IMG/VR virus record: IMGVR_UViG_3300031998_000049
Origin: an uncultured virus (IMG/VR IMGVR_UViG_3300031998_000049)
Lineage: Duplodnaviria > Heunggongvirae > Uroviricota > Caudoviricetes
Direction: 5' to 3' (one strand)
Length of the DNA stretch: 64,000 nt
In this document: positions 4,479 to 55,367 of the stretch, piece by piece
How the letters are laid out: each line of letters starts with the position of its first letter
Position numbering within the stretch: the stretch's first letter is position 1
Program-made: the position numbers and the translations under genes
The notes under the pieces: generated by a model
What the model was told of the DNA's origin: nothing
The model's database searches: none
Seen by the model: the letters and a program-made list of their open reading frames with translations, nothing else

Positions 4479-5267
4479 ATGAAGACATCCATCATCGTAC
4501 CGGTCTTCAACACCGAGAAATACATCGAGCGCTGCCTGGACTCCGTGAAAGAGCAGACCGAGGAGGACTGGGAGTGCATCGTCGTCAACGACGGCTCCAT
4601 CGACGGAAGTCTGCGCGAGATCATCGCCCAGACGGATGGCGACCCCCGGTTTACCATCGTCTCATCCACGAAGAACAACGGCCTCTTCCACGCCCGCAAC
4701 CTCGGTCTCGCCGTGGCATCCGGCGTCTTCGTCACCTTCCTCGACTCCGACGACTGGCTCTTCCCGGAAGCCCTCAGCACCCTCCTCGCCGAGATGGAGC
4801 GCAACCCGGAAGCGGACCGCATCGTGGGGCTTGAGATGAACGAATGGGAGGCAACTGGAGAGAAGAGCATCTGGAAGATAGAACCGCCCGGCCTCCGGCA
4901 CCGGCTCTCCCCCGTCCTATTCACGCCTACCTGCGATGTCGGCCATGTGACCGGATGCCTCTACCGGCGCAAAGCCATCACATCCTTCCCCAGAGTGCGA
5001 GTCTTCGAGGACATGATCTTCAACATGGAGTTCGCGTTCGCCGGGAAGCGGACCTTCATCAGCACCGAGGTCGTCTATCACTACACCAGGCGCAACGGAT
5101 CGCTCATCACCGGGAAATACACCCTGGCTGACGCGAGAGAGGCGCGTGACGCCTTCGCCTCCGTAGCCCTCATGCACAATCCGCCGGAACTCCTGCGCGA
5201 GCAGTACCGCACCTTCCTGGAGAACGCGATCCGGGGCAGGCTGCGCCGGATGGGGATAGTCGAATAA
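4479..5267 (+). CDS. glycosyltransferase family 2
   Basis: SIIVPVFNTEKYIERCLDSV, VVNDGS.DGS, NNGL..ARN.GL, FLDSDD, FED motifs. Confidence 0.92.
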   Translation: MKTSIIVPVFNTEKYIERCLDSVKEQTEEDWECIVVNDGSIDGSLREIIAQTDGDPRFTIVSSTKNNGLFHARNLGLAVASGVFVTFLDSDDWLFPEALSTLLAEMERNPEADRIVGLEMNEWEATGEKSIWKIEPPGLRHRLSPVLFTPTCDVGHVTGCLYRRKAITSFPRVRVFEDMIFNMEFAFAGKRTFISTEVVYHYTRRNGSLITGKYTLADAREARDAFASVALMHNPPELLREQYRTFLENAIRGRLRRMGIVE

Positions 5268-5390: not shown

Positions 5391-5829
5391 CACCTCCGTC
5401 TTTCCCGACCATCTCCTTGACCTCGCCCTCGAAATCCATCATCTCCTTCACCTCCTGCACGGCGGCGGCATCCTCCTCATCCGTGCCGTCCAGCTTCATG
5501 CCGTAGCACTCCGGATGACGCTTCATACACGCCTCAGTCTCCTTGAAGATGTTCTCCAGGTACTCCTGGTCCGGGATGCACGAGAAGACGGAGAAGATGA
5601 CCGCGAGCCAGTTGTGAAGCCCGTTGCCGTTGCCGTCGCTCCTGCCGCCCTTGATCTCGTCGTAGAGCTGCTTGAGGAACATACCGACCGGTACGCCCTT
5701 CGCCGCCCGGTGCGTGAAGAGGGAGTTGATGTCCATGACCTTCATGTGGTTCTCCTCGTCGCGGACGACGAAGTTACCCACACGCTGCTCGTTCGCGTCG
5801 AGCTTGATTTTGTCTTTCAATACTTTCAT
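5386..5829 (-). CDS. hypothetical phage protein
   Basis: 147-aa ORF, strong codon bias. Confidence 0.8.
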   Translation of the reverse strand: MKVLKDKIKLDANEQRVGNFVVRDEENHMKVMDINSLFTHRAAKGVPVGMFLKQLYDEIKGGRSDGNGNGLHNWLAVIFSVFSCIPDQEYLENIFKETEACMKRHPECYGMKLDGTDEEDAAAVQEVKEMMDFEGEVKEMVGKDGGE

Positions 5830-5831
5830 TT

Positions 5832-7151
5832 CTATTTCGTTTTGGGATATACCTTGTAGAACAGCTCCTTGCTCCGGAAAGTCTGGACGCCAAGGCGCTT
5901 GAGTTCCGCCGTAATCATGTAACGCGACACGGTGTCGCGCAAGCCCAGCGCGATCTCGTTCTGCGAGACAAGCACCGGCGTCTGCCCGTCGAACTCCGGA
6001 CGCACCGAGTAGCCCCGGCTCTCCAGGTACGCCCGCGCCGGGTACGAACAGGCGGACACCTCACGGCGCATCGACTCCAGCTCGCCGTCCATCTTCGGAC
6101 AAGGGGTAAACTCGCCGCCGTTCAGGATGAGCCGGTCACGCCCGGCAATCACCCAGTTGAAGATGCCCGGAAGGTCCGTCGCGCACAACCGGTCGGCCAG
6201 CGTCCTGTCCTGACGCTCGGTAGGTATCTGGACATCGAACCGGAAGAGCAGCAGACGGCGGAAGAAAGCGGGCGTGAGGTCGCGGAAGACCGGCAACTCG
6301 TTCAGGGCGAAACACAACGGCGGACACTTCACCCGCTCCGGGTCCTGGTAGTTCCGCCTCGCAGTCACCTCCTGGCCGGAGGCAAGCGCCTTGATCGCTG
6401 AGTCGAAATCCTTGTTCCGAGCCATGTCCGGGACGAAATTCAACCGCTTCCCGATGAAAGGCAACATCTTCTCGTCCCGCAACTGCGCCGTGTCCAGAGA
6501 GGTGACGCCGGTGGCGCCAAGCACCCTGCGCATCACATTGCCGATCACGCTCTTCCCATTCGCACCGGAACCGACCATCAACGCGAACTTCTCCACGCTC
6601 AACCGCTCGCGGTCCAGAAAGACCATGCCGAAGAACTCCTGGAGGACGCTCCGCACCGAAGCATCGGGCAACACCTCGCAAAGAAACGCCTCCCATGCCG
6701 CACATCCGGCAGAAGGGTCGTAGCGGTACTCCATCCGCTCCGTACACACACGATCCGCACTGAAACCCTCCGCGAACGAGCCGTCGTCCAGGTCGTACAC
6801 GCCGTTCTGGAAACAGAGAAGACGGCCAGAACGGAACGACCGCTCACCAATCACCGACATCGGCATGTCAGACATCCTCCGGACATCCGTCGGCGATACC
6901 CCTCCATCCACAAGCACATTCCCCAGCACAGCCACCACATCAGCCCGCGAACACGACACATAACTCCGACCATCGAAGACATGCAGATCACCATCCACCA
7001 GACACAACGACGACGACCGCAACAACTCCCGGCAAAATAGCGTCAAGGAGTCCACACGGTCGTTCACCGCGCGTACAGACAACACCGACGACAATGGCTC
7101 AGCCCTCGCCGTCAACAGCCCCGAAAACTCCTCACGCAGAATGGAAATCAT
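5832..7151 (-). CDS. D5/P4-family SF3 helicase (phage/plasmid primase C-terminal-like)
   Basis: LCFQNGVYDL (D5-N), Walker A GSGANGKS, ALNELP motif C, FFRRLL. Confidence 0.85.
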   Translation of the reverse strand: MISILREEFSGLLTARAEPLSSVLSVRAVNDRVDSLTLFCRELLRSSSLCLVDGDLHVFDGRSYVSCSRADVVAVLGNVLVDGGVSPTDVRRMSDMPMSVIGERSFRSGRLLCFQNGVYDLDDGSFAEGFSADRVCTERMEYRYDPSAGCAAWEAFLCEVLPDASVRSVLQEFFGMVFLDRERLSVEKFALMVGSGANGKSVIGNVMRRVLGATGVTSLDTAQLRDEKMLPFIGKRLNFVPDMARNKDFDSAIKALASGQEVTARRNYQDPERVKCPPLCFALNELPVFRDLTPAFFRRLLLFRFDVQIPTERQDRTLADRLCATDLPGIFNWVIAGRDRLILNGGEFTPCPKMDGELESMRREVSACSYPARAYLESRGYSVRPEFDGQTPVLVSQNEIALGLRDTVSRYMITAELKRLGVQTFRSKELFYKVYPKTK

Positions 7152-7480
7152 ACAACCTCCTCGAACCAGACATTGTTGCCGTCACTCCGGTCGAACTTCG
7201 AGCACCGCAATCCAGCACACTTCGCATCAGACTGATTGAACGCGCACCCGGAACACGCCTCGCAAGGCAAACCAACTCGACGACGAGGAATACACCTGTA
7301 CTGCTTGCCCTTGCGGAAAAATGTCTCCCCAACGCCGATGTCGGTACGGGGAATCCTCGAACGCTTCGCGTCCCTGTTGCAGATTTCAATGGCTCGGTGC
7401 GCGAACGCGACCTGCTCGTCCGTGAAATTTGATACGCCAGGGTATAACTCCGACAATATCCTTTCTTCTTTCCTTGTCAT
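7148..7480 (-). CDS. hypothetical Cys-rich protein
   Basis: CEACSGCAF...CAGLRC; ATG right after a TATCTTTG promoter element. Confidence 0.7.
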   Translation of the reverse strand: MTRKEERILSELYPGVSNFTDEQVAFAHRAIEICNRDAKRSRIPRTDIGVGETFFRKGKQYRCIPRRRVGLPCEACSGCAFNQSDAKCAGLRCSKFDRSDGNNVWFEEVV

Positions 7481-7570
7481 ACCGCAAAGATAAAAAATAG
7501 TTTCACTTAAAACAACTATCTGTTGCTTTTTATGAAACAATTTTTATACAAAACGCCGAATCCTAACCCA

Positions 7571-7780
7571 ATTTACACCAATTTACGAAATTTGCAACTT
7601 TTACACCAGCTAACGCATTGATAATCAGGACTTCGTAAATCTCGTATATTTTTTTCAGTCCTTTCTATATATATATTTTATCTCTCCTGCGTAAAGCCCT
7701 AAAAAAGATTTACGAAATTTACGAAACGCTCTGTATCAACACTTTACAGCATGCAGATTTTGCATTTGTCGTAAATTGCA
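7571..7780. repeat. AT-rich non-coding region with TTTAC(G/A) repeats in both orientations (origin/terminus candidate)
   Basis: ATTTACGAAA at 7581, 7708, 7717; reverse copies TCGTAAAT at ~7633 and 7769; TTTACACCA twice. Confidence 0.55.
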
Positions 7781-7902
7781 AGAAAAAAATTTGAGAAAAA
7801 ATATTTCGGAGGATAGGGAGAGCGTTTCCTTCGTTGGTGGTTTGCCCCCCCCCGCCCCCCTTCCTGCCCGCTGGATCGCTTCGCCGGTCGCTTACAAAAT
7901 AC

Positions 7903-8469
7903 CTATTTTATAGTCCTTTCCTTGGCTTTCAGATATAAAGGGCAAGATTCGCACCGCTGCGGTAAGTAGGCGTGAACTTGTTTTTGGTCTCGTGCGGCTT
8001 GCCTATCATCGCGCTGCGTTTGTTGTATTGCTTTTATGGCGTCTAATTGGGTTTTTGGGTCATCTTTGGACTCCGCAATAATTCTATTTATTTGGGTTCG
8101 TTGGTTTTCGGGGTTGTAGTAGTCAACCGGCGCAAAATCTTTTTTTTGCTTGCCGTTGGTGGGTTCACTCTCCGCCTGATCAAATTGCCGTTGTTCGTTT
8201 CTCGTCCTTTCCTCCTCTGCTCCTCTTCTCCTGGCGTCGCTATCTCGGTCGGCTATTATCCGCCGTAGGTCTTCTATGCAATTGCGGACTTTTTCGGAGT
8301 TTTTCCACCTGGACACAAGCGGGTTCAGGCTTGTATGCTTTTCGGCGTCTGCTCGGCTTTTGTCCTCTGCGGACAAATAGAGCTCTTTCCAACTTGTTTC
8401 GATGCCGAGGACATAAAGCAGTAAAACGGCTTTTTCTCGGTTGGTTAGTCTTGTTTTCTCGCCTGGCAT
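7903..8469 (-). CDS. putative terminase small subunit
   Basis: LTNREK...LY...VSRWKNSEKVRNCIEDL HTH pattern plus helical C-terminus typical of TerS. Confidence 0.5.
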   Translation of the reverse strand: MPGEKTRLTNREKAVLLLYVLGIETSWKELYLSAEDKSRADAEKHTSLNPLVSRWKNSEKVRNCIEDLRRIIADRDSDARRRGAEEERTRNEQRQFDQAESEPTNGKQKKDFAPVDYYNPENQRTQINRIIAESKDDPKTQLDAIKAIQQTQRDDRQAARDQKQVHAYLPQRCESCPLYLKAKERTIK

Positions 8470-12816: not shown

Positions 12817-13137
12817 ATGACAAACTCAATGACCTTTGAGGAGATTTTCTCCCTGATCCAGAAGCACAATTTAACTGTGAGGTGTTTCCCTACGCATATT
12901 GTTGGCTTCCACATATACCGCGATGGAGAAACGATCAACGACGGGGACACCATCAAGGAGAAAGTGTTTAAAAACGGCACTCATAAGGTTGTGTACCACG
13001 AGGAGTTTAGAGAACCTAAGTGGGGTGTAAAGATCGGAGATTGGCCGCACTGGACCAAGCATGATTTCTATGGCACAACCTTAGAGGATGCTGTAAGAAA
13101 AGCAGTGGAGAGCCTGGAGCGCACCACCAAGGAATAG
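12817..13137 (+). CDS. hypothetical protein
   Basis: 106 aa, own TACCTTTG promoter upstream. Confidence 0.7.
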   Translation: MTNSMTFEEIFSLIQKHNLTVRCFPTHIVGFHIYRDGETINDGDTIKEKVFKNGTHKVVYHEEFREPKWGVKIGDWPHWTKHDFYGTTLEDAVRKAVESLERTTKE

Positions 13138-13160
13138 AACCGCGAAATACTTCAAATTTA

Positions 13161-13193
13161 TTTTGCAGTTTAAAATATTCTGCTTATATTTGT
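13161..13193 (+). promoter_or_regulatory. second copy of early promoter, upstream of ardA
   Basis: 29/33 identical to 8888-8920. Confidence 0.7.
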
Positions 13194-13251
13194 ATCGCCT
13201 TCTAAATTTTGCACCGCAAGTCCGGCGGGATATAAACAGGGCTTCCGTGCT

Positions 13252-14253
13252 ATGGCACAAGTTTATGTTAGTACTTATGGGAAGTACAACTCCGGCAGCA
13301 TCGCCGGTGCGTGGATCGACCTCTCCGACTGCGCAAGCTATTCCGATTTCCTGGCCAAGTGCAAGGACGCGCACAAGGACGAGCGTGACCCTGAGTTTAT
13401 GATCCAGGACACCGAGGGCTTCCCTGACGGTCTCTCCTGCATGGAGTGGCTGTCCGAGGCCGACTTCAACGATGTCAAGGCCGCCATGAAGGAGGAGGCC
13501 CAGGAGGAGGCTCCGGCGCCCTCTTTCGAGGTCGTTGACTATTCCGAGAAAGCTATCGCCGTTACGGGTGATACGAGGTCCATTTCTGACAGTCTCAAGG
13601 CGCTGGGCGGGCGCTTCAATCCTCGCCTGTCTTGCGGTCCTGGCTGGATTTTCTCCAAGCGCCAGGAGGATGCCGTCCGCGCCCTTCTTGGAGGCGCTAA
13701 AACCGCCACGGCGAAGAAAGAGGAGGCCGAGGCCCCCTACCTCGTCGCCCGCCGCGAATATCTCGACACCTGCCAGGGCGGACGGGAATACAAGGAGCGC
13801 AATACCGCTGCCTGCGTCAAACTGCCGGAGGGCTTCTATCTGATCAGCAAGCCGTCGATCGAGAACAAGTTCTGTTTCGAGGACGAAGGCCCCGACTACG
13901 ACCTGTATAATTCCCTCCTCGCCGACGAGGAGAAACTTCGCGCCTACTTCCTCAACGCGAACCTCTCCGACTTCGATGTCAAATTGAAGTTCCTGGAGGA
14001 AGGCGACGATCCGGTCCTTGTCGCCGCCGACAAGTACGACTCTAACACGGCCTGGATACGGACCAAGCAGTACAGCGTAGACTATTGGGACGCTGTGCGC
14101 GAGGGCTGGCGCCAGCTCACAGACGAGGAGCGCAAGGCCGTGGCCGCTGCTCTCCGCTTCGTCCGGGACGGCTTCGAGAAGCGCCTGCATGCCTACCTGA
14201 AACGCTACGGCGTTTCCAAGATTCACACCTGGTCCTACTGGGCCAATGCGTAA
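13252..14253 (+). CDS. ardA: ArdA-like antirestriction protein N-domain fused to additional domains
   Basis: VYVSTYGKYNSGSIAGAWIDL...HKDERDPEFMIQD.EGFP. Confidence 0.8.
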   Translation: MAQVYVSTYGKYNSGSIAGAWIDLSDCASYSDFLAKCKDAHKDERDPEFMIQDTEGFPDGLSCMEWLSEADFNDVKAAMKEEAQEEAPAPSFEVVDYSEKAIAVTGDTRSISDSLKALGGRFNPRLSCGPGWIFSKRQEDAVRALLGGAKTATAKKEEAEAPYLVARREYLDTCQGGREYKERNTAACVKLPEGFYLISKPSIENKFCFEDEGPDYDLYNSLLADEEKLRAYFLNANLSDFDVKLKFLEEGDDPVLVAADKYDSNTAWIRTKQYSVDYWDAVREGWRQLTDEERKAVAAALRFVRDGFEKRLHAYLKRYGVSKIHTWSYWANA

Positions 14254-14321
14254 CAAAAAGAGGGGGGGGGAGGGGGTGATACCCCTCCCGTCTCTCCAGA
14301 TAACCATAAAAACACACGGAT

Positions 14322-51034: not shown

Positions 51035-51140
51035 AGGGGAACGGCCCGGCTGGTCTGGGCGAGAACCGGCATGAATCTTTCGTGAGTTGCAAGCTCGCGC
51101 CGGGAGAAAGGCGAGGGTTCGATTCCCTCTTCCCCTTCAA
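51035..51140 (+). ncRNA. tRNA-like element with elongated anticodon arm (Cys-like GCA loop)
   Basis: Acceptor AGGGGAA/TTCCCCT, D arm GCCC/GGGC, T arm GAGGG-TTCGATT-CCCTC. Confidence 0.6.
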
Positions 51141-51221
51141 AATCAGACACGCTAATTCATCTCTACAATTTTGTTTCACCAACCCCCACGCCGTCTGAGT
51201 GGGGGTTAATCTTCGTTTGTT

Positions 51222-51923
51222 ATGGAATGGATTTACACCAATGATAACCCACTCAAGGTTGTCACGCTCTGCTCCGGATATGACTCGCAGCTTATGGCTC
51301 TCCGAAACATCGGAATCCCCTATGAATGTGTTGCATGGAGCGAAATCGACCCTTTCGCCATCCGCGCACATAATGCGGTCTTTCCCGAACTCGCGGACAA
51401 GAACCTCGGCGATATGACGAAGATCGACTGGAGCAAGGTGCCGGATTTCGACCTACTCTTCTACTCCACGCCATGTACCGATTTTTCAAATGCCGGCAAG
51501 CAGGCAGGCGGCGAAGAGGGTTCGGGTACAAGAAGTTCAATCCTATGGTGGACGCGCTATGCCATTCTCCAGAAGAAGCCGAAGTACCTTATCATGGAGA
51601 ATGTGAAAGCGCTCGTGAGCGAGAAGTTCAGACCGCTCTTCCTGAAATGGTGCAAGGAACTTACCGAATACGGATACACCAATTTCCAGCAAGTCCTCAA
51701 CGCAAAGGACTACGGAATCCCACAAAACCGAGAGCGAATCTTCGTGGTTTCCATCCTCGGCGATGCGTGGTACAATTTCCCTCAGCCGATGGAACTCAAG
51801 CTGCGCCTCAAGGATATGCTTGAGGAGAAAGTTGATGAGAAATACTACCTTGACCAAGAGAAAGTCAACCAGTTCATAGATGGCCTTACCGAAGAGAAAA
51901 AGCAGTTGCTTGAGCGGGGGTAA
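51222..51923 (+). CDS. dcm: C5 cytosine methyltransferase, N-terminal half (motifs I-VIII)
   Basis: TLCSGYD, EID, DMTKID, STPCTDFSNAG, ENVK, QNRERIF. Confidence 0.93.
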   Translation: MEWIYTNDNPLKVVTLCSGYDSQLMALRNIGIPYECVAWSEIDPFAIRAHNAVFPELADKNLGDMTKIDWSKVPDFDLLFYSTPCTDFSNAGKQAGGEEGSGTRSSILWWTRYAILQKKPKYLIMENVKALVSEKFRPLFLKWCKELTEYGYTNFQQVLNAKDYGIPQNRERIFVVSILGDAWYNFPQPMELKLRLKDMLEEKVDEKYYLDQEKVNQFIDGLTEEKKQLLERG

Positions 51924-54287
51924 TCCAACGACTGGGAACATACGGCTCGATGCTATGCTCTCTCGTCTTCTTGGTCTTCCTTGTGGTGTGTATTTCCTGG
52001 ATTGCTACAACCTTGCATCGCGCGATAGGACGACATGCACAATCAAGTCAAGCATCAACCAAAACAATGACAAGTTCATCCTTGAAATCTCCGAATGATC
52101 CAGTTCCGATAGCCGTACTTGGAAGCGCTCAACGGAATGCTTTCTTCGGTCTTGTCACATCTTACTGCTCTTGCGTAACCGCGGCTTGTGGAATGGGCGG
52201 CGGCCAGATTCCTATGATAATTGAGTCTTATGATACGCATTAGACCGATAAACATAGATAGGGGGGGCGGCGAAATGTATCAAGGCAGGATACTACAAGT
52301 ATGGTTGGACGAACTTCACGAGAAGCCTTCTTGGAATAAAGGACGGGTTCTCCGCAACCGCAATCATTGAGATACATGATAACCCATGCCCTAACAACAC
52401 GGAATCCGAAAAAGAACTACGATAGACCATCGTGGGCATCCATCGCTGGTGCGCTCCTCGCTACCGACTACAAATCTCCACCACTCGCTCTACTCGTTTA
52501 TGAACAAGACGACAATACGGAACGAGATCATAATTGCATTTAAGGTAGGACGGCATCAGCAAGACCGGATCATCTCAACAGAGGGGGTTCTTCCAACGAT
52601 TCCCGCCGGGCATCACAACAATGCTCAATGGATGAACCTTATTCTTGTCTATGAAGAAGACAATACCAATCAACACAACGGCTGACGGATGTGCATTCAC
52701 GATAGTCACACGATACGAGGGAAGAGCATATCTAAAGTCTATGACGGGGGGGGCGGATACTATCCATGCACCGGCGTCCTTGAAGTGTCGGACGATTCTG
52801 AACCCCTGCAAGGGCGGAATCTGCAAGACGATATACTCAAGAGTCGGTAGGCTCTCCTGGGAGAACTACCTTGGTCGTCTTGAACACGGCGGATGGGACT
52901 GCCAAATGACGAGCATCCTTGAGGTCTATGAAGAAGATACTCCCAATGAACCCAATGCCGGACGGAACGGCGCGGACGCTGAAAGCACAATACTTTAAGA
53001 ACTCGTTGGCCAATTTTGTCCGTAACGGCTCGTTTGCCGCTACTGGCGCCATAGAAATATCCAATGCTGAACAACAAAAGGCTTGAGGCCATCCTTTCCG
53101 TTGCGGCGAGCAGCGAGCTTGATTGCGGTCTATACATCCTTGACTGCTATATGGGGAGAACCATTAGAAAGGACTACTCTCACGCAATAACCACCAGGAC
53201 GGCTACCGACAGCAACACATTCGTCCTTGAAATCAATGACAACTTGGATCATCCCAACGAAAGGGAAAGGGCATGAAGTCACCGCAAGGAACATCGCAAA
53301 AGACGACCCAACCGACATCTGCCGTCCGCTTACAACAGACCCTTGGGACAACGCCCTACTCTATGAATACGATTCGGATACCGCAAGCGACCGGGATAGG
53401 ATTCATTGAGGTTAAGCAGGGGGGAGTATTTGATATGTCCTACCCGACGAGCAAGACCCGCCGTGGCCGCGTCCAGGACAACGGCGAGGTGTCACCAACG
53501 ATAACCTGCAACCCGGAAATCTACTATTATGAAGGTACAAGAGAAGAATGAGGGCGTTTGGTACAAAGGACGCTTCTGCCCCGTATGGGGGGGGCTGTAT
53601 ATTTCAAACTCCGCAGACTTCGACCACGGCGCACTGCCGGACATTTCCAGGACGCTCAAAGCCGGCAAGCACGATGCTGCCGTAGTTGTAGAATATGAAT
53701 ACGAATAGGGTTGTTGAGGTTGGCAACATGGTCCGCACTGGGAACTGGGACTCTCCGCAGAGAGGACGGATTTATTCTCCACGCGGATGCAGCCCAGCAT
53801 TAAACACTTGTTGTGGGGGGGGCTTGGAACCAAAGATAATTCTCTATGAGGAAGATAAAGGTCTTCATCCTGACGAGGGAACGGAGCGAGGAAGAAAAGC
53901 TGCGTCGGCATCTATATGGGGATAAGGGGGCGAAGTTCTCCGGAGGGAAAGTTCCGAAACTTGCCCCCCCCTATGTCATAGGAACTATAACTACAATGGT
54001 CACGAAAGACCTGCTCCTCGCAGAAATATATGAAGACAATAATTCCTTACGATGATTATAACCATCAAATCCATATAGGGTGTGGCATAATTGGAACGGT
54101 CGCCCAAAACTTTGGAAGAGAGGCGTTGAGGAATGGCTGGAAGATAATCGAAGTATATGAAACCGAAAATTTACCAAATAGGCCAGATATGGAAAAGCGA
54201 GGCTAATGGTTGGGTTTACCATAGGGGGGGGGGCTTTCCCCTACCATCTGCTGCGGAGCGCATAGCGGAGTACAACCGAAGATAGTT
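51915..54287 (+). other. array of ~16 small target-recognition-like methyltransferase modules in staggered +1 frames
   Basis: ORFs starting at 52230, 52376, 52500, 52651, 52928, 53064, 53236, 53363, 53529, 53695, 53846, 54030, 54157, plus ATG-less units near 51915, 52090, 52785; motifs such as RIYSPRGCSPALNTCCGGGLEPKI, SYPTSKTRRGRVQ..VSPTIT, LLATDYK, RTLKAQY. Confidence 0.8.
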
Positions 54288-55085
54288 ATGGACGGCGTTT
54301 TATTCAAAGGCAAGTTCTTTCCAGCCTATGGAGGACTCTATACCCGAATGAGCGACAATCCTTCGTTCATTCGAGGAGGTCTTGAAAATATATCAAGGGC
54401 TTTAAAAGCGGAAATCGCAGATGCTGGAGTAGTAGTAGAAGACAACAATCAAAAAACAAATAGTATGCAAAACAATTATCGTGTTGTAAATGTAGAACTG
54501 GTAAGAACCATCGTCCCGGAGGGAACGAGCGGTGGCACCGGCTATTCACAATATGCAGACCTTCGCGTGACCTTTGACGGAGGAAACGCAACCGATGTTC
54601 GCATTTCGTACTACTATACAACCGCGCAGGATGCTTTCAAGGAGTTCCTTGAGCATCTTCCCGGTTGTGATAATGCAGAAGAAACCTATGCGCTTTTCGG
54701 CGATGCTATTCGTCATCTTCTCCTCGATTTTTGCGCATTCTCCGAACTGCCCGAATCTCTTCGCAAGCCGGAGTTTAAAACCGAGAAGAAGAAAATCTAT
54801 CGGATCAGGAAACTGACTCCGAGGGAGTGCTTCCGTCTTATGGGTGTCTCGGACTCGGATATTGACAAAATCCAAGCCTATCCGTTCCACGAGGCAATCC
54901 AGAATCCGTCATTCTCAAAAGATGAGATTCTTGCTGGTATGACGGAACAAGAGAAACGGAAATTGATGAAAGACTCAATTTCCGAGAGCCAGCAGTACAA
55001 GATGGCCGGAAACAGCATCGTGGTGAATGTCCTTGAGGGCATTTTCACGCAGCTCTTCCGCGCCGATACGGATTGTCTTTTTTAG
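54288..55085 (+). CDS. dcm: C5 cytosine methyltransferase, C-terminal half (motifs IX-X)
   Basis: RIRKLTPRECFRLMG; QQYKMAGNSIVVNVLEGIF. Confidence 0.9.
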   Translation: MDGVLFKGKFFPAYGGLYTRMSDNPSFIRGGLENISRALKAEIADAGVVVEDNNQKTNSMQNNYRVVNVELVRTIVPEGTSGGTGYSQYADLRVTFDGGNATDVRISYYYTTAQDAFKEFLEHLPGCDNAEETYALFGDAIRHLLLDFCAFSELPESLRKPEFKTEKKKIYRIRKLTPRECFRLMGVSDSDIDKIQAYPFHEAIQNPSFSKDEILAGMTEQEKRKLMKDSISESQQYKMAGNSIVVNVLEGIFTQLFRADTDCLF

Positions 55086-55094
55086 TCCTCTCGA

Positions 55095-55367
55095 ATGAGC
55101 CACGCGAAGAATTACATCGACCTCACCGGCAAGCGCTTCGGTCGCCTTACCGTCATCTGCCAGGATGATCTCACCGACAACCGGATGACAACCTGGCGAG
55201 TCAGATGCGACTGCGGCCAGGAGTTCACGGCACTCGGCATCAACCTGCGCCGGGGCGCGACCTTGAGTTGCGGGTGCCTCCGCCGGGATATGATGCGTGG
55301 AAATAAGAGGAACCACCTACAACCTACTACATATAGCCGTTGTGAAACGGCGGGGGCGGCTTCTTGA
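55095..55367 (+). CDS. AP2/HNH-associated N-terminal zinc domain protein, no nuclease domain
   Basis: DLTGKRFGRLTV...W..RCDCG...L..G.T.SCGC. Confidence 0.7.
   Translation: MSHAKNYIDLTGKRFGRLTVICQDDLTDNRMTTWRVRCDCGQEFTALGINLRRGATLSCGCLRRDMMRGNKRNHLQPTTYSRCETAGAAS

Follow-up and report, generated by a model that had tools for sequence, protein, structure and literature searches.

How can a DNA methyltransferase work when its gene is cut in the variable region, and when the space between the two parts is filled with short open reading frames (ORFs) that change frame from one to the next? This question is raised by positions 51222-55085 of an uncultured virus from IMG/VR (IMGVR_UViG_3300031998_000049), of which a stretch of 64,000 nucleotides (nt), hereafter the window, was analyzed. 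The original prediction, made from the letters alone, had described the locus as a split cytosine-5 (C5) methyltransferase enclosing about 16 frame-staggered specificity modules, and its reading as a modular, multispecific, split phage methylase fits everything that we tested. Taken as a whole, we consider it probable that the locus encodes a split catalytic core served by target-recognition domain (TRD) peptides that dock in trans and are switched by homopolymer runs. As for the parts of this reading, the separate-gene architecture is very likely, and the docking of TRD peptides on the core in trans is likely. Functional switching by the runs is, from comparison of sequences, probable, and we infer distinct specificities and an anti-restriction role.

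The two halves of the enzyme were recognized by Pfam profile search. The N-terminal half (N-half) is a plus-strand ORF of 233 amino acids (aa) at 51222-51923 that matches positions 2-213 of the 324 of PF00145 (E 5e-49), and its stop codon falls just past motif VIII. Motifs I-VIII of PF00145 place it among the C5 methyltransferases, and the catalytic-motif strings TPC, ENV, and QNRER occur in its translation and are invariant in 16 relatives. The C-terminal half (C-half) is a plus-strand ORF of 265 aa at 54288-55085 that matches the C-terminal part of PF00145 (E 9e-9, best stretch positions 252-292) and holds motifs IX-X, with RKLT..E..RLM and GNSIVV invariant in 8 relatives. These PF00145 matches confirm the split proposed by the original prediction. 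The layout is that of a two-chain enzyme of the M.AquI type, in which one chain (51222-51923) holds motifs I-VIII and the other (54288-55085) the variable region and motifs IX-X. The 2.4 kb between the halves are without a long ORF and consist of a chain of short plus-strand ORFs; the peptides and module-end motifs quoted earlier from this region are all present. We resolved 17 TRD-sized modules (M1-M17) between the N-half and motifs IX-X, one more than the roughly 16 first proposed, while the array itself stands as described. Its parts are as follows (L numbers denote loci in other contigs or genomes, introduced below).

51222-51923, plus strand: N-half, motifs I-VIII (PF00145), with a G5 run (51916-51920) at its extreme end
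51880-52098, plus strand: M1, 72 aa, frame 1; its ATG overlaps the tail of the N-half; paralogue of M9 (36% identity)
52082-52243, plus strand: M2, frame 2; junction without ATG, candidate starts TTG 52082 or an upstream ATG at 51950; homologue in L003
52230-52425, plus strand: M3, broken at a G7 run (52261-52267); head in frame 0 (ATG 52230), tail in frame 1, stop at 52425
52376-52543, plus strand: M4, 55 aa, frame 2, intact; interrupted C-run near 52474
52500-52685, plus strand: M5, 61 aa, frame 0, intact
52651-52998, plus strand: M6 head, G8 run (52746-52753), and M7, as a 115-aa ORF in frame 1; M6 tail in frame 0 (52743-52795)
52928-53086, plus strand: M8, 52 aa, frame 2
53064-53276, plus strand: M9, 70 aa, frame 0
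53236-53409, plus strand: M10, 57 aa, frame 1; 7 homologues (48-75% identity)
53363-53551, plus strand: M11, 62 aa, frame 2; G6 run at 53419 in frame
53529-53708, plus strand: M12, 59 aa, frame 0; G8 run (53587-53594) in frame; paralogue of M17
53695-53925, plus strand: M13, 76 aa, frame 1; G8 run (53815-53822) in frame; the module used for the complex model
53846-54055, plus strand: M14, 69 aa, frame 2; C8 run (53964-53971) in frame
54030-54206, plus strand: M15, 58 aa, frame 0
54157-54287, plus strand: M16, broken at a G10 run (54224-54233); head in frame 1, tail in frame 0
54288-55085, plus strand: C-half ORF, made of M17 (54288-54455), an insert of about 105 aa (54456-54770), and motifs IX-X (54786-55082)

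Similarity between modules of the window was detectable for four pairs (M1-M9, M3-M8, M6-M8, and M12-M17). The modules are thus mostly unrelated to one another, which is consistent with many different targets. A Pfam search with six single modules returned no family, and for the insert at 54456-54770 neither a relative among 22 loci nor a Pfam family was found, and the Atlas gave no usable match.

The boundaries between these parts follow a common rule. A +1 step, from the tail frame of one module to the head frame of the next, was observed at 16 of the 17 boundaries, and 14 of these 16 have an ATG inside N-ATG. The context is TATGAA at eight junctions (52499, 52650, 52927, 53362, 53528, 53694, 54029, and 54156), and TATGAT, CATGAT, AATGCT, AATGAC, TATGAG, and GATGG at one each. 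The remaining boundary, between M16 and M17, is in frame at ATG 54288. The stagger and the eightfold TATGAA were correctly foreseen, although the ATG junctions number 14 rather than 13. The claim of one register at every junction holds for the +1 steps, but these are not the whole of the frame logic, as runs break three of the modules. With a stop at the end of the N-half and shifts at 16 of 17 boundaries, the locus departs from the SPR type, whose single polypeptide carries several TRDs between motifs VIII and IX.

Start codons and runs were counted in 21 arrays, i.e., that of the window, 12 from viral contigs, and 8 from genome loci; L001 (identical to the window) and L092 (a duplicate of L091) were left out. 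A module-end tyrosine was defined as a Tyr that stands directly before Glu or Asp, has hydrophobic residues ahead of it, and lies close to where an open segment ends. At module ends Tyr is encoded by TAT 118 times and by TAC 12 times (91% TAT), as compared to 365 and 316 times (54% TAT) elsewhere in the same open segments, and 1239 and 1467 times (46% TAT) in flanking long ORFs. Selection for tyrosine alone would not prefer TAT, and this preference at module ends indicates that the overlapping junction ATG is under selection. An ATG lies within the first 10 codons of 178 of the 307 plus-strand open segments of at least 40 aa versus 53 of the 323 on the minus strand, and TATGAA is the commonest start context (57 of 176). 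Bacteroidia are largely without the Shine-Dalgarno motif. This motif was found at 3 of the 28 long genes of the phage and at 1 of 15 junction ATGs; since so few long genes have one, it is not expected at the junctions either, and the test is uninformative.

To what extent is this layout peculiar to the window? Viral contigs were scanned with the N-half, and 80 of 186 relatives were kept as loci (L001-L080). The N-half stops early in L001-L020, of which L002-L020 are 52-88% identical to that of the window and stop at the same place. A IX-X tail lies 1.2-3.3 kb downstream of the N-half in 12 of L002-L020 and upstream of it in L015 and L017, and L001 and five of L002-L020 are cut by a contig end. 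Among L021-L080, 59 are one-piece enzymes of 342-395 aa, and L040 stops at 243 aa. The scan of bacterial genomes gave 41 loci, nine of them split with a tail more than 600 nt downstream and four with the tail upstream of the head. These include L081, on a 268-kb contig of a Bacteroidia metagenome-assembled genome (MAG) with 84% identity, others in Bacteroidaceae and Prevotella MAGs, and L093 in the cultured Prevotella sp. MGM1. The system is thus held by 19 of the 80 kept viral loci (L001 being a duplicate of the window) and by 13 of the 41 genome loci, and the layout of the window itself recurs in 20 other loci, on 12 viral contigs and 8 bacterial MAG contigs. Staggered chains are visible in the three-frame maps of L002, L003, L004, L006, L008, L010, L011, L015, L016, L019, and L020. 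This comparison of homologous loci had been put forward as a check in the original prediction; the staggered junctions recur, module order and number vary from locus to locus, and inter-locus homology ends at the junction ATG. Some boundaries in the relatives are in frame, like that between M16 and M17.

The tail match lies upstream of the head in six loci (L015, L017, L082, L083, L087, and L093). Specifically, L015 has IX-X ahead of I-VIII as a single 359-aa ORF, followed by five staggered modules and no closing piece. Because its core is one ORF with the modules placed after it, these modules cannot be inserted between motifs VIII and IX. A Cys-rich small ORF also follows the array of L015 and starts at the same kind of Tyr-Glu/ATG junction. 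In L093, the permuted core joins IX-X and I-VIII in one ORF of 386 aa. The stretch 5668-7900 of that locus holds this core and then TRD-like pieces with G7-G11 runs, and further runs lie upstream at 4491, 4999, and 5346. Deposited phage genomes (50,697) yielded only short motif-level DNA matches to ordinary methylases and no match to the M14 protein, and the best relatives of the N-half among them are at most 67% identical.

Comparison of the modules of the window with those of the relatives gave amino-acid identities of 60-94%, with synonymous divergence (dS) saturated in most pairs. For the subset of pairs in which it could be computed, the ratio of nonsynonymous to synonymous divergence (dN/dS) was mostly 0.03-0.48 and not near 1. 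The heads of modules that are out of frame are well conserved, with 94% identity for that of M6 (L010 and L005, dS saturated) and 91% for that of M16; the tail of M3 is 75% identical to its counterpart in L081 with a dN/dS of 0.05. These values indicate that the modules are under purifying selection.

That a module corresponds to a TRD is supported by its alignment to ordinary enzymes. In the one-piece L021 enzyme, residues 229-270, which lie between motifs VIII and IX, align with a module of L016 (48% identity, E 3e-11). The family profile of M13 pointed to residues 222-257 of M.HhaI in 11 of the 12 best matches among solved structures (PDB), all of them weak (E 0.05-0.8). When M14 was compared with 1.84 billion representative proteins, 75 clusters were retrieved, of which 62 are 49-133 aa long. 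Eight of the 13 longer clusters were checked, and these comprised one complete PF00145 methylase of 376 aa (match at 241-301) and seven fusions of a TRD to a closing piece. For the M14 type and the L016 module, one module therefore corresponds to the whole variable region of a one-piece enzyme. In seven of seven close relatives, the closing piece opens with a conserved Met, and the motif IX strand follows two codons later; the window has Lys at the site of this Met because its closing piece is fused to M17 and the insert.

Structure prediction of N-half, module, and C-half had been put forward as a check. Three chains were modelled (the N-half, residues 167-265 of the C-half ORF, and M13) with our own alignments of 16, 8, and 5 rows, and the complex scored 0.87, 0.86, and 0.87, against 0.01 for the best of three controls. 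Of 157 solved complexes, 116 reach the mark thus passed, as do 2 of 215 mismatched pairs; these counts are only rough for small alignments such as ours. Contact agreement between runs was at least 96%, and the predicted local distance difference test (pLDDT) of the partners at least 77. In the model, the last TRD strand (45-52) pairs with the first strand of the C-half (3-10), and TRD residues 26-38 contact the N-half at motif VIII (167-171) and at residues 195-197. The model suggests that the pieces fit the known fold, whereas binding itself is beyond its reach.

The second peculiarity of the array, which the original prediction did not mention, is its homopolymers. Six G or C runs of at least 7 bases lie within the 3.9-kb array versus three in the other 60 kb of the window. 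Across the 21 arrays, 125 such runs occur in 37.8 kb (3.31 per kb), with up to 17 per array, against 15 in 257.7 kb of flanks (0.058 per kb), a 57-fold difference. Gly-Gly is written GGGGGG in 220 of 399 cases (55%) within arrays and in 11 of 540 (2%) in flanking ORFs; because GGGGGG is favoured only in the arrays, the runs reflect codon choice and not a need of the protein. The genes carry hypermutable simple repeats inside coding sequence, as do phase-variable methyltransferases.

We also compared related strains, by aligning assembled contigs from four sequencing runs to the stretch (X1, X3, X4, and X6; 95-99% alike, three studies). X1 is a Logan contig that may derive from the source sample itself; a 2025 study supplied X3 and X4, and X6 belongs to a study of 2021. 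The eight indel entries, at six places, all sit at five of the six runs or at the interrupted C-run of M4, and six of the eight are not multiples of three.

52261-52267: G7 run in M3, out of frame in the window; at 52260, +2 in X3 and X4, bringing M3 head and tail into frame
52746-52753: G8 run in M6, out of frame in the window; at 52745, +5 in X6
53587-53594: G8 run in M12, in frame in the window; at 53586, +3 in X3 and +1 in X4 (out of frame)
53815-53822: G8 run in M13, in frame in the window; at 53814, +1 in X4 (out of frame)
53964-53971: C8 run in M14, in frame in the window
54224-54233: G10 run in M16, out of frame in the window; at 54224, -1 in X1 and -3 in X4
52474: interrupted C-run in M4; -4 in X6

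The position homologous to 52474 is a C9 run in L004 and a C8 run in L010. Over 51222-53822 (2.6 kb), X3 differs from the window by 57 substitutions and five gap letters, all of the latter at two runs, and every junction is kept. Module replacement or deletion was seen in the contig comparison of X3 and X4. With run lengths that vary among near-identical strains, related phages probably carry different protective methylation patterns. The insert at 54456-54770 is also present in X6, and X4 has a different stretch of 690 bases in its place.

Two runs sit where modules are joined. The M6 head as assembled runs via a 12-aa linker into M7, which is without an ATG of its own, and the linking frame is likewise open in L004 and L008. 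The tail of M16 is in frame with M17 and the closing piece, and head and tail frames of M16-type modules differ also in L002, L004, L008, and L010. In L012 (6724), L020 (6769), and L090 (6709), a G8-G9 run lies within the last codons of the N-half, the homologous site in the window being the G5 run at 51916-51920. To judge from these sequences, a change of run length there could fuse the catalytic head to the first module.

We propose the following mechanism. The locus would encode a multi-part cytosine-5 DNA methyltransferase of a temperate phage of rumen Bacteroidia, whose core would consist of two proteins, the N-half with motifs I-VIII and the C-half with motifs IX-X, the latter here fused to M17 and the insert. 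DNA reading would be supplied by 17 small genes with one complete TRD each, and each of these would start at an ATG within the last conserved residues of the preceding module (x-AT/GAx, mostly TAT-GAA). As every cassette adds a +1 step and has its own frame, cassettes could be added, lost, or reordered without breaking their neighbours. The TRD peptide would dock in trans: its last strand would pair with the strand that opens the C-half, and its recognition loop would rest on motif VIII of the N-half. In this way a single core would methylate many sequences and shield the phage DNA from numerous host restriction enzymes, the likely role being such protection combined with bet-hedging. Switching would concern the six modules, out of 17, that contain G or C runs of 7-10 bases, whose length is readily changed. 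A change that is not a multiple of three would truncate the module, or send its head into the next one, and leave the others unaffected. Each specificity would be an independent on/off switch, the phage population would be a mix of methylation patterns, and at some runs a change might decide which of two neighbouring modules is made, or whether the closing piece is free or joined to a TRD.

A bolder form of this mechanism, which we consider somewhat less likely than not, is an epigenetic lottery run by phages of rumen and gut Bacteroidia. Up to about 20 exchangeable peptides, acting in trans, would program one core, as a C5 counterpart of the Type I HsdS subunits, with up to 2^n patterns among the progeny of one prophage and with the M6/M7 and M16 runs as three-way switches. 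If true, it would be a hedge between hosts whose restriction enzymes demand the mark and hosts with methyl-dependent nucleases.

Several observations weigh against the proposed mechanism. The boundaries from M1 to M2 and from M6 to M7 are without an ATG. The sole C-half of the window is fused to M17 and is without a free Met-Ala-Lys start, so that free TRDs would compete with a TRD in cis. As one-chain methylases of the same fold, e.g., M.HhaI, have already been solved, the score of the complex model may partly be memory of them, and our own small alignments are outside the calibration of the model. A dN/dS of 1.55 was obtained for M2, a meaningless value from one mis-framed alignment. In the run census, 51 of the 125 runs are in frame, 37 at +1, and 37 at -1, by a crude rule that mislabels at least the M6 run. 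Three arrays (L016, L091, and L116) have no G or C run of at least 7 bases, and switching is therefore not essential to the architecture. Run-length differences were found between samples, together with a 1-base difference between two assemblies of one sample; the comparison being one of contigs, we infer switching within populations. In every locus read (eight for the M6 type, five for the M16 type), these two kinds of module have their head in another frame than their own tail, which is not what a freely running switch would lead one to expect. Finally, there was no RNA run among the sequencing runs containing the stretch.

The out-of-frame modules bear on the strongest rival, namely that the runs act through slippage of RNA polymerase or ribosome in each cell and give a fixed mixture of in-frame and out-of-frame products with no heritable switch. 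At 8-12 bases, a run has the length at which a polymerase can stutter, as is established for A/T runs, and modules that are out of frame everywhere would be sensible if such a genotype were still partly expressed. However, the run lengths differ in the DNA itself, both between strains that are 95-99% alike and between the two assemblies of one sample, and the direction in which the same module is out of frame differs between loci (-1 in the window and L002, +1 in L004 and L008). We regard slippage in place of switching as unlikely, and note that the two are not mutually exclusive.

Less still can be said for the second mechanism offered by the original prediction, serial programmed +1 ribosomal frameshifting at x-AT-GAA, which would join all modules into one giant multispecific enzyme. 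It would account for the fact that all 16 internal boundaries step by +1 at a similar sequence, it agrees with the classical multispecific enzymes, whose TRDs are in cis, and the in-frame boundaries of M16-M17 and of some relatives also speak for it. Yet the junctions do not have the form of a programmed +1 site, i.e., a slippery P-site codon with a slow or stop codon: they read TAT-GAA, the stop of the old frame lies a median of 36.5 nt further on, and the conserved feature is the ATG. UAU-GAA is not a +1 shift site known to us. The bias of TAT over TAC makes an ATG that slippage does not need, the heads start with Met-Lys or Met-Asn, and the new frame opens just a few codons before the ATG. 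Sixteen successive shifts would presumably give almost no full-length product, and a change in run length would kill everything downstream, yet three of the six runs are out of frame. The modules of L015 have no closing piece after them, and 62 of the 75 M14-type clusters are called as small proteins. Serial recoding is thus very unlikely, and of the two mechanisms offered, separate docking peptides are favoured because of the selection on start codons, the loci with IX-X upstream, the mostly free-standing homologues, and the complex model.

More improbable again is a silent library of modules that are not expressed in place, with an expression site between head and tail to which one of them is transferred by copying or recombination, although diverse cassettes in one orientation with a common junction may resemble the donors of antigenic variation. 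No fully read locus has a TRD in frame between N-half and C-half, the N-half stops early in every split locus, and the cassettes bear start codons that appear to be selected. The region 51100-55200 has no long direct or inverted repeats beyond the junction similarity, and no recombinase gene adjoins the array, the integrase being 33 kb away. Finally, decay of a multispecific methylase (random decay had been argued against in the original prediction as well) or an assembly artefact might be suggested by so many changes of frame within 2.4 kb, several at error-prone homopolymers, but can be dismissed in view of the same architecture in 20 other loci and many samples, the independent contig X3 (every junction kept, gap letters only at runs), the purifying selection on modules, the preference for TAT at junctions, and intact ORFs of up to 1960 aa in the rest of the window, which exclude pervasive indel error.

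How does the proposed split and switched enzyme compare with known systems? The multispecific methyltransferases of Bacillus phages carry two to five TRDs in one polypeptide between motifs VIII and IX, self-contained and rearrangeable, and their presumed role is protection from several restriction enzymes. Like them, the locus described here is a phage-borne orphan C5 methylase with several different tandem TRDs; unlike them, it has 17 TRDs, each in its own small overlapping ORF, a two-protein core, and hypermutable runs. M.SPRI, M.Phi3TI, M.Rho11sI, M.H2I, and M.phiBssHII, studied by the Trautner laboratory (work listed among the references of PMC8936443), belong to this group. That a C5 methylase can function as separate polypeptides split in or near the variable region is indicated by the two-chain enzymes M.AquI and M.EcoHK31I and by complementation between fragments of M.SssI, M.BspRI, and others (PMC3404938). 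The N-half and the ORF with M17 and IX-X resemble the alpha and beta chains of M.AquI, whereas M.AquI and M.EcoHK31I have two chains and one specificity and the present locus has 16 additional TRD genes. The background passages of that paper describe neither a free-standing TRD chain nor an array of alternative TRD chains (PMC3404938).

Phase-variable Type III mod and Type I hsdS/hsdM phasevarions and homopolymer-bearing methylase genes of Helicobacter and Campylobacter are treated in excerpts of three further papers (PMC7383803, PMC4889913, and PMC3936762). On the basis of these excerpts, the likeness is that a homopolymer or short repeat in coding sequence changes length and toggles the frame, so that methylation varies in the population. 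The phasevarion enzymes covered there are bacterial N6-adenine methyltransferases of Type I, IIG, or III with one switch per gene, unlike the runs in many modules of a phage C5 enzyme found here. In Type I systems, a separate specificity protein, HsdS, gives a shared catalytic core its target, and alternative specificity genes can be swapped. The specificity peptide proposed here would likewise be separate from a shared core, but fold, enzyme class, and mode of switching (mostly inversions and recombination in Type I) are unrelated, and the locus has no restriction partner. Circularly permuted C5 methyltransferases are represented by the M.BssHII type. The six loci with the IX-X match ahead of I-VIII are similar to this type, although the window is not permuted and the TRDs of the permuted relatives are separate downstream mini-genes. 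Full-text literature searches, with subscription journals outside their coverage, brought up no account of TRD genes that stand alone, of arrays of staggered TRDs, or of phage C5 methylases switched by repeats, in line with the earlier statement that no description of this architecture was known.

If the proposed reading is true, target recognition by a C5 methyltransferase can be delegated to a free peptide of 50-70 aa, a new principle for this enzyme class that would also provide a compact natural toolkit for programmable cytosine methylation. We know of no earlier case in which a phage, rather than a bacterium, diversifies its own epigenetic coat by many independent repeat switches, and this would bear on the broad host range of temperate phages in restriction-dense communities. 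An ATG inside the last Tyr-Glu with a +1 junction would let gene cassettes be shuffled with their frames intact. Metagenomes of rumen and gut commonly contain the system, and Prevotella sp. MGM1 (L093) is a possible laboratory handle.

The metagenome runs containing the stretch are from bovine or other gut and belong to 13 studies. Since the split relatives occur in Bacteroidia, Bacteroidaceae, and Prevotella genomes, the host of the phage is most likely a rumen member of Bacteroidia. The remainder of the window is that of an ordinary temperate tailed phage, with genes for an integrase, tape measure, tail fibre, major head protein, terminase, portal, RecE-like exonuclease, and DnaB-like helicase. 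The nearest relative, virus record G001, has 59% of the sampled words of the window in common and gave no match to the entire 3.9-kb methylase array; the array thus behaves as an accessory cassette of this phage lineage.

A few further features of the window deserve mention. Directly after the methylase, a small ORF resembling HNH endonucleases lies at 55095-55367 (PHROG 374, E 8e-18). A G9 run at 14262-14270 (C9 on the coding strand) is located about 12 codons into a minus-strand ORF of 408 aa (13081-14307), which had no PHROG match and which, from the position of the run, may be a second repeat-switched gene of the phage. A C9 run at 7845-7853, with a C6 run close behind, lies between a primase-like ORF (5832-7151, minus strand) and the ORF at 7903-8469 (minus strand). 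Lastly, an ORF of 925 aa at 39519-42296 matches the terminase large subunit at residues 457-681 and primase, helicase-loader, and helicase families over its first 370 residues, and is an unusually long, possibly fused terminase.

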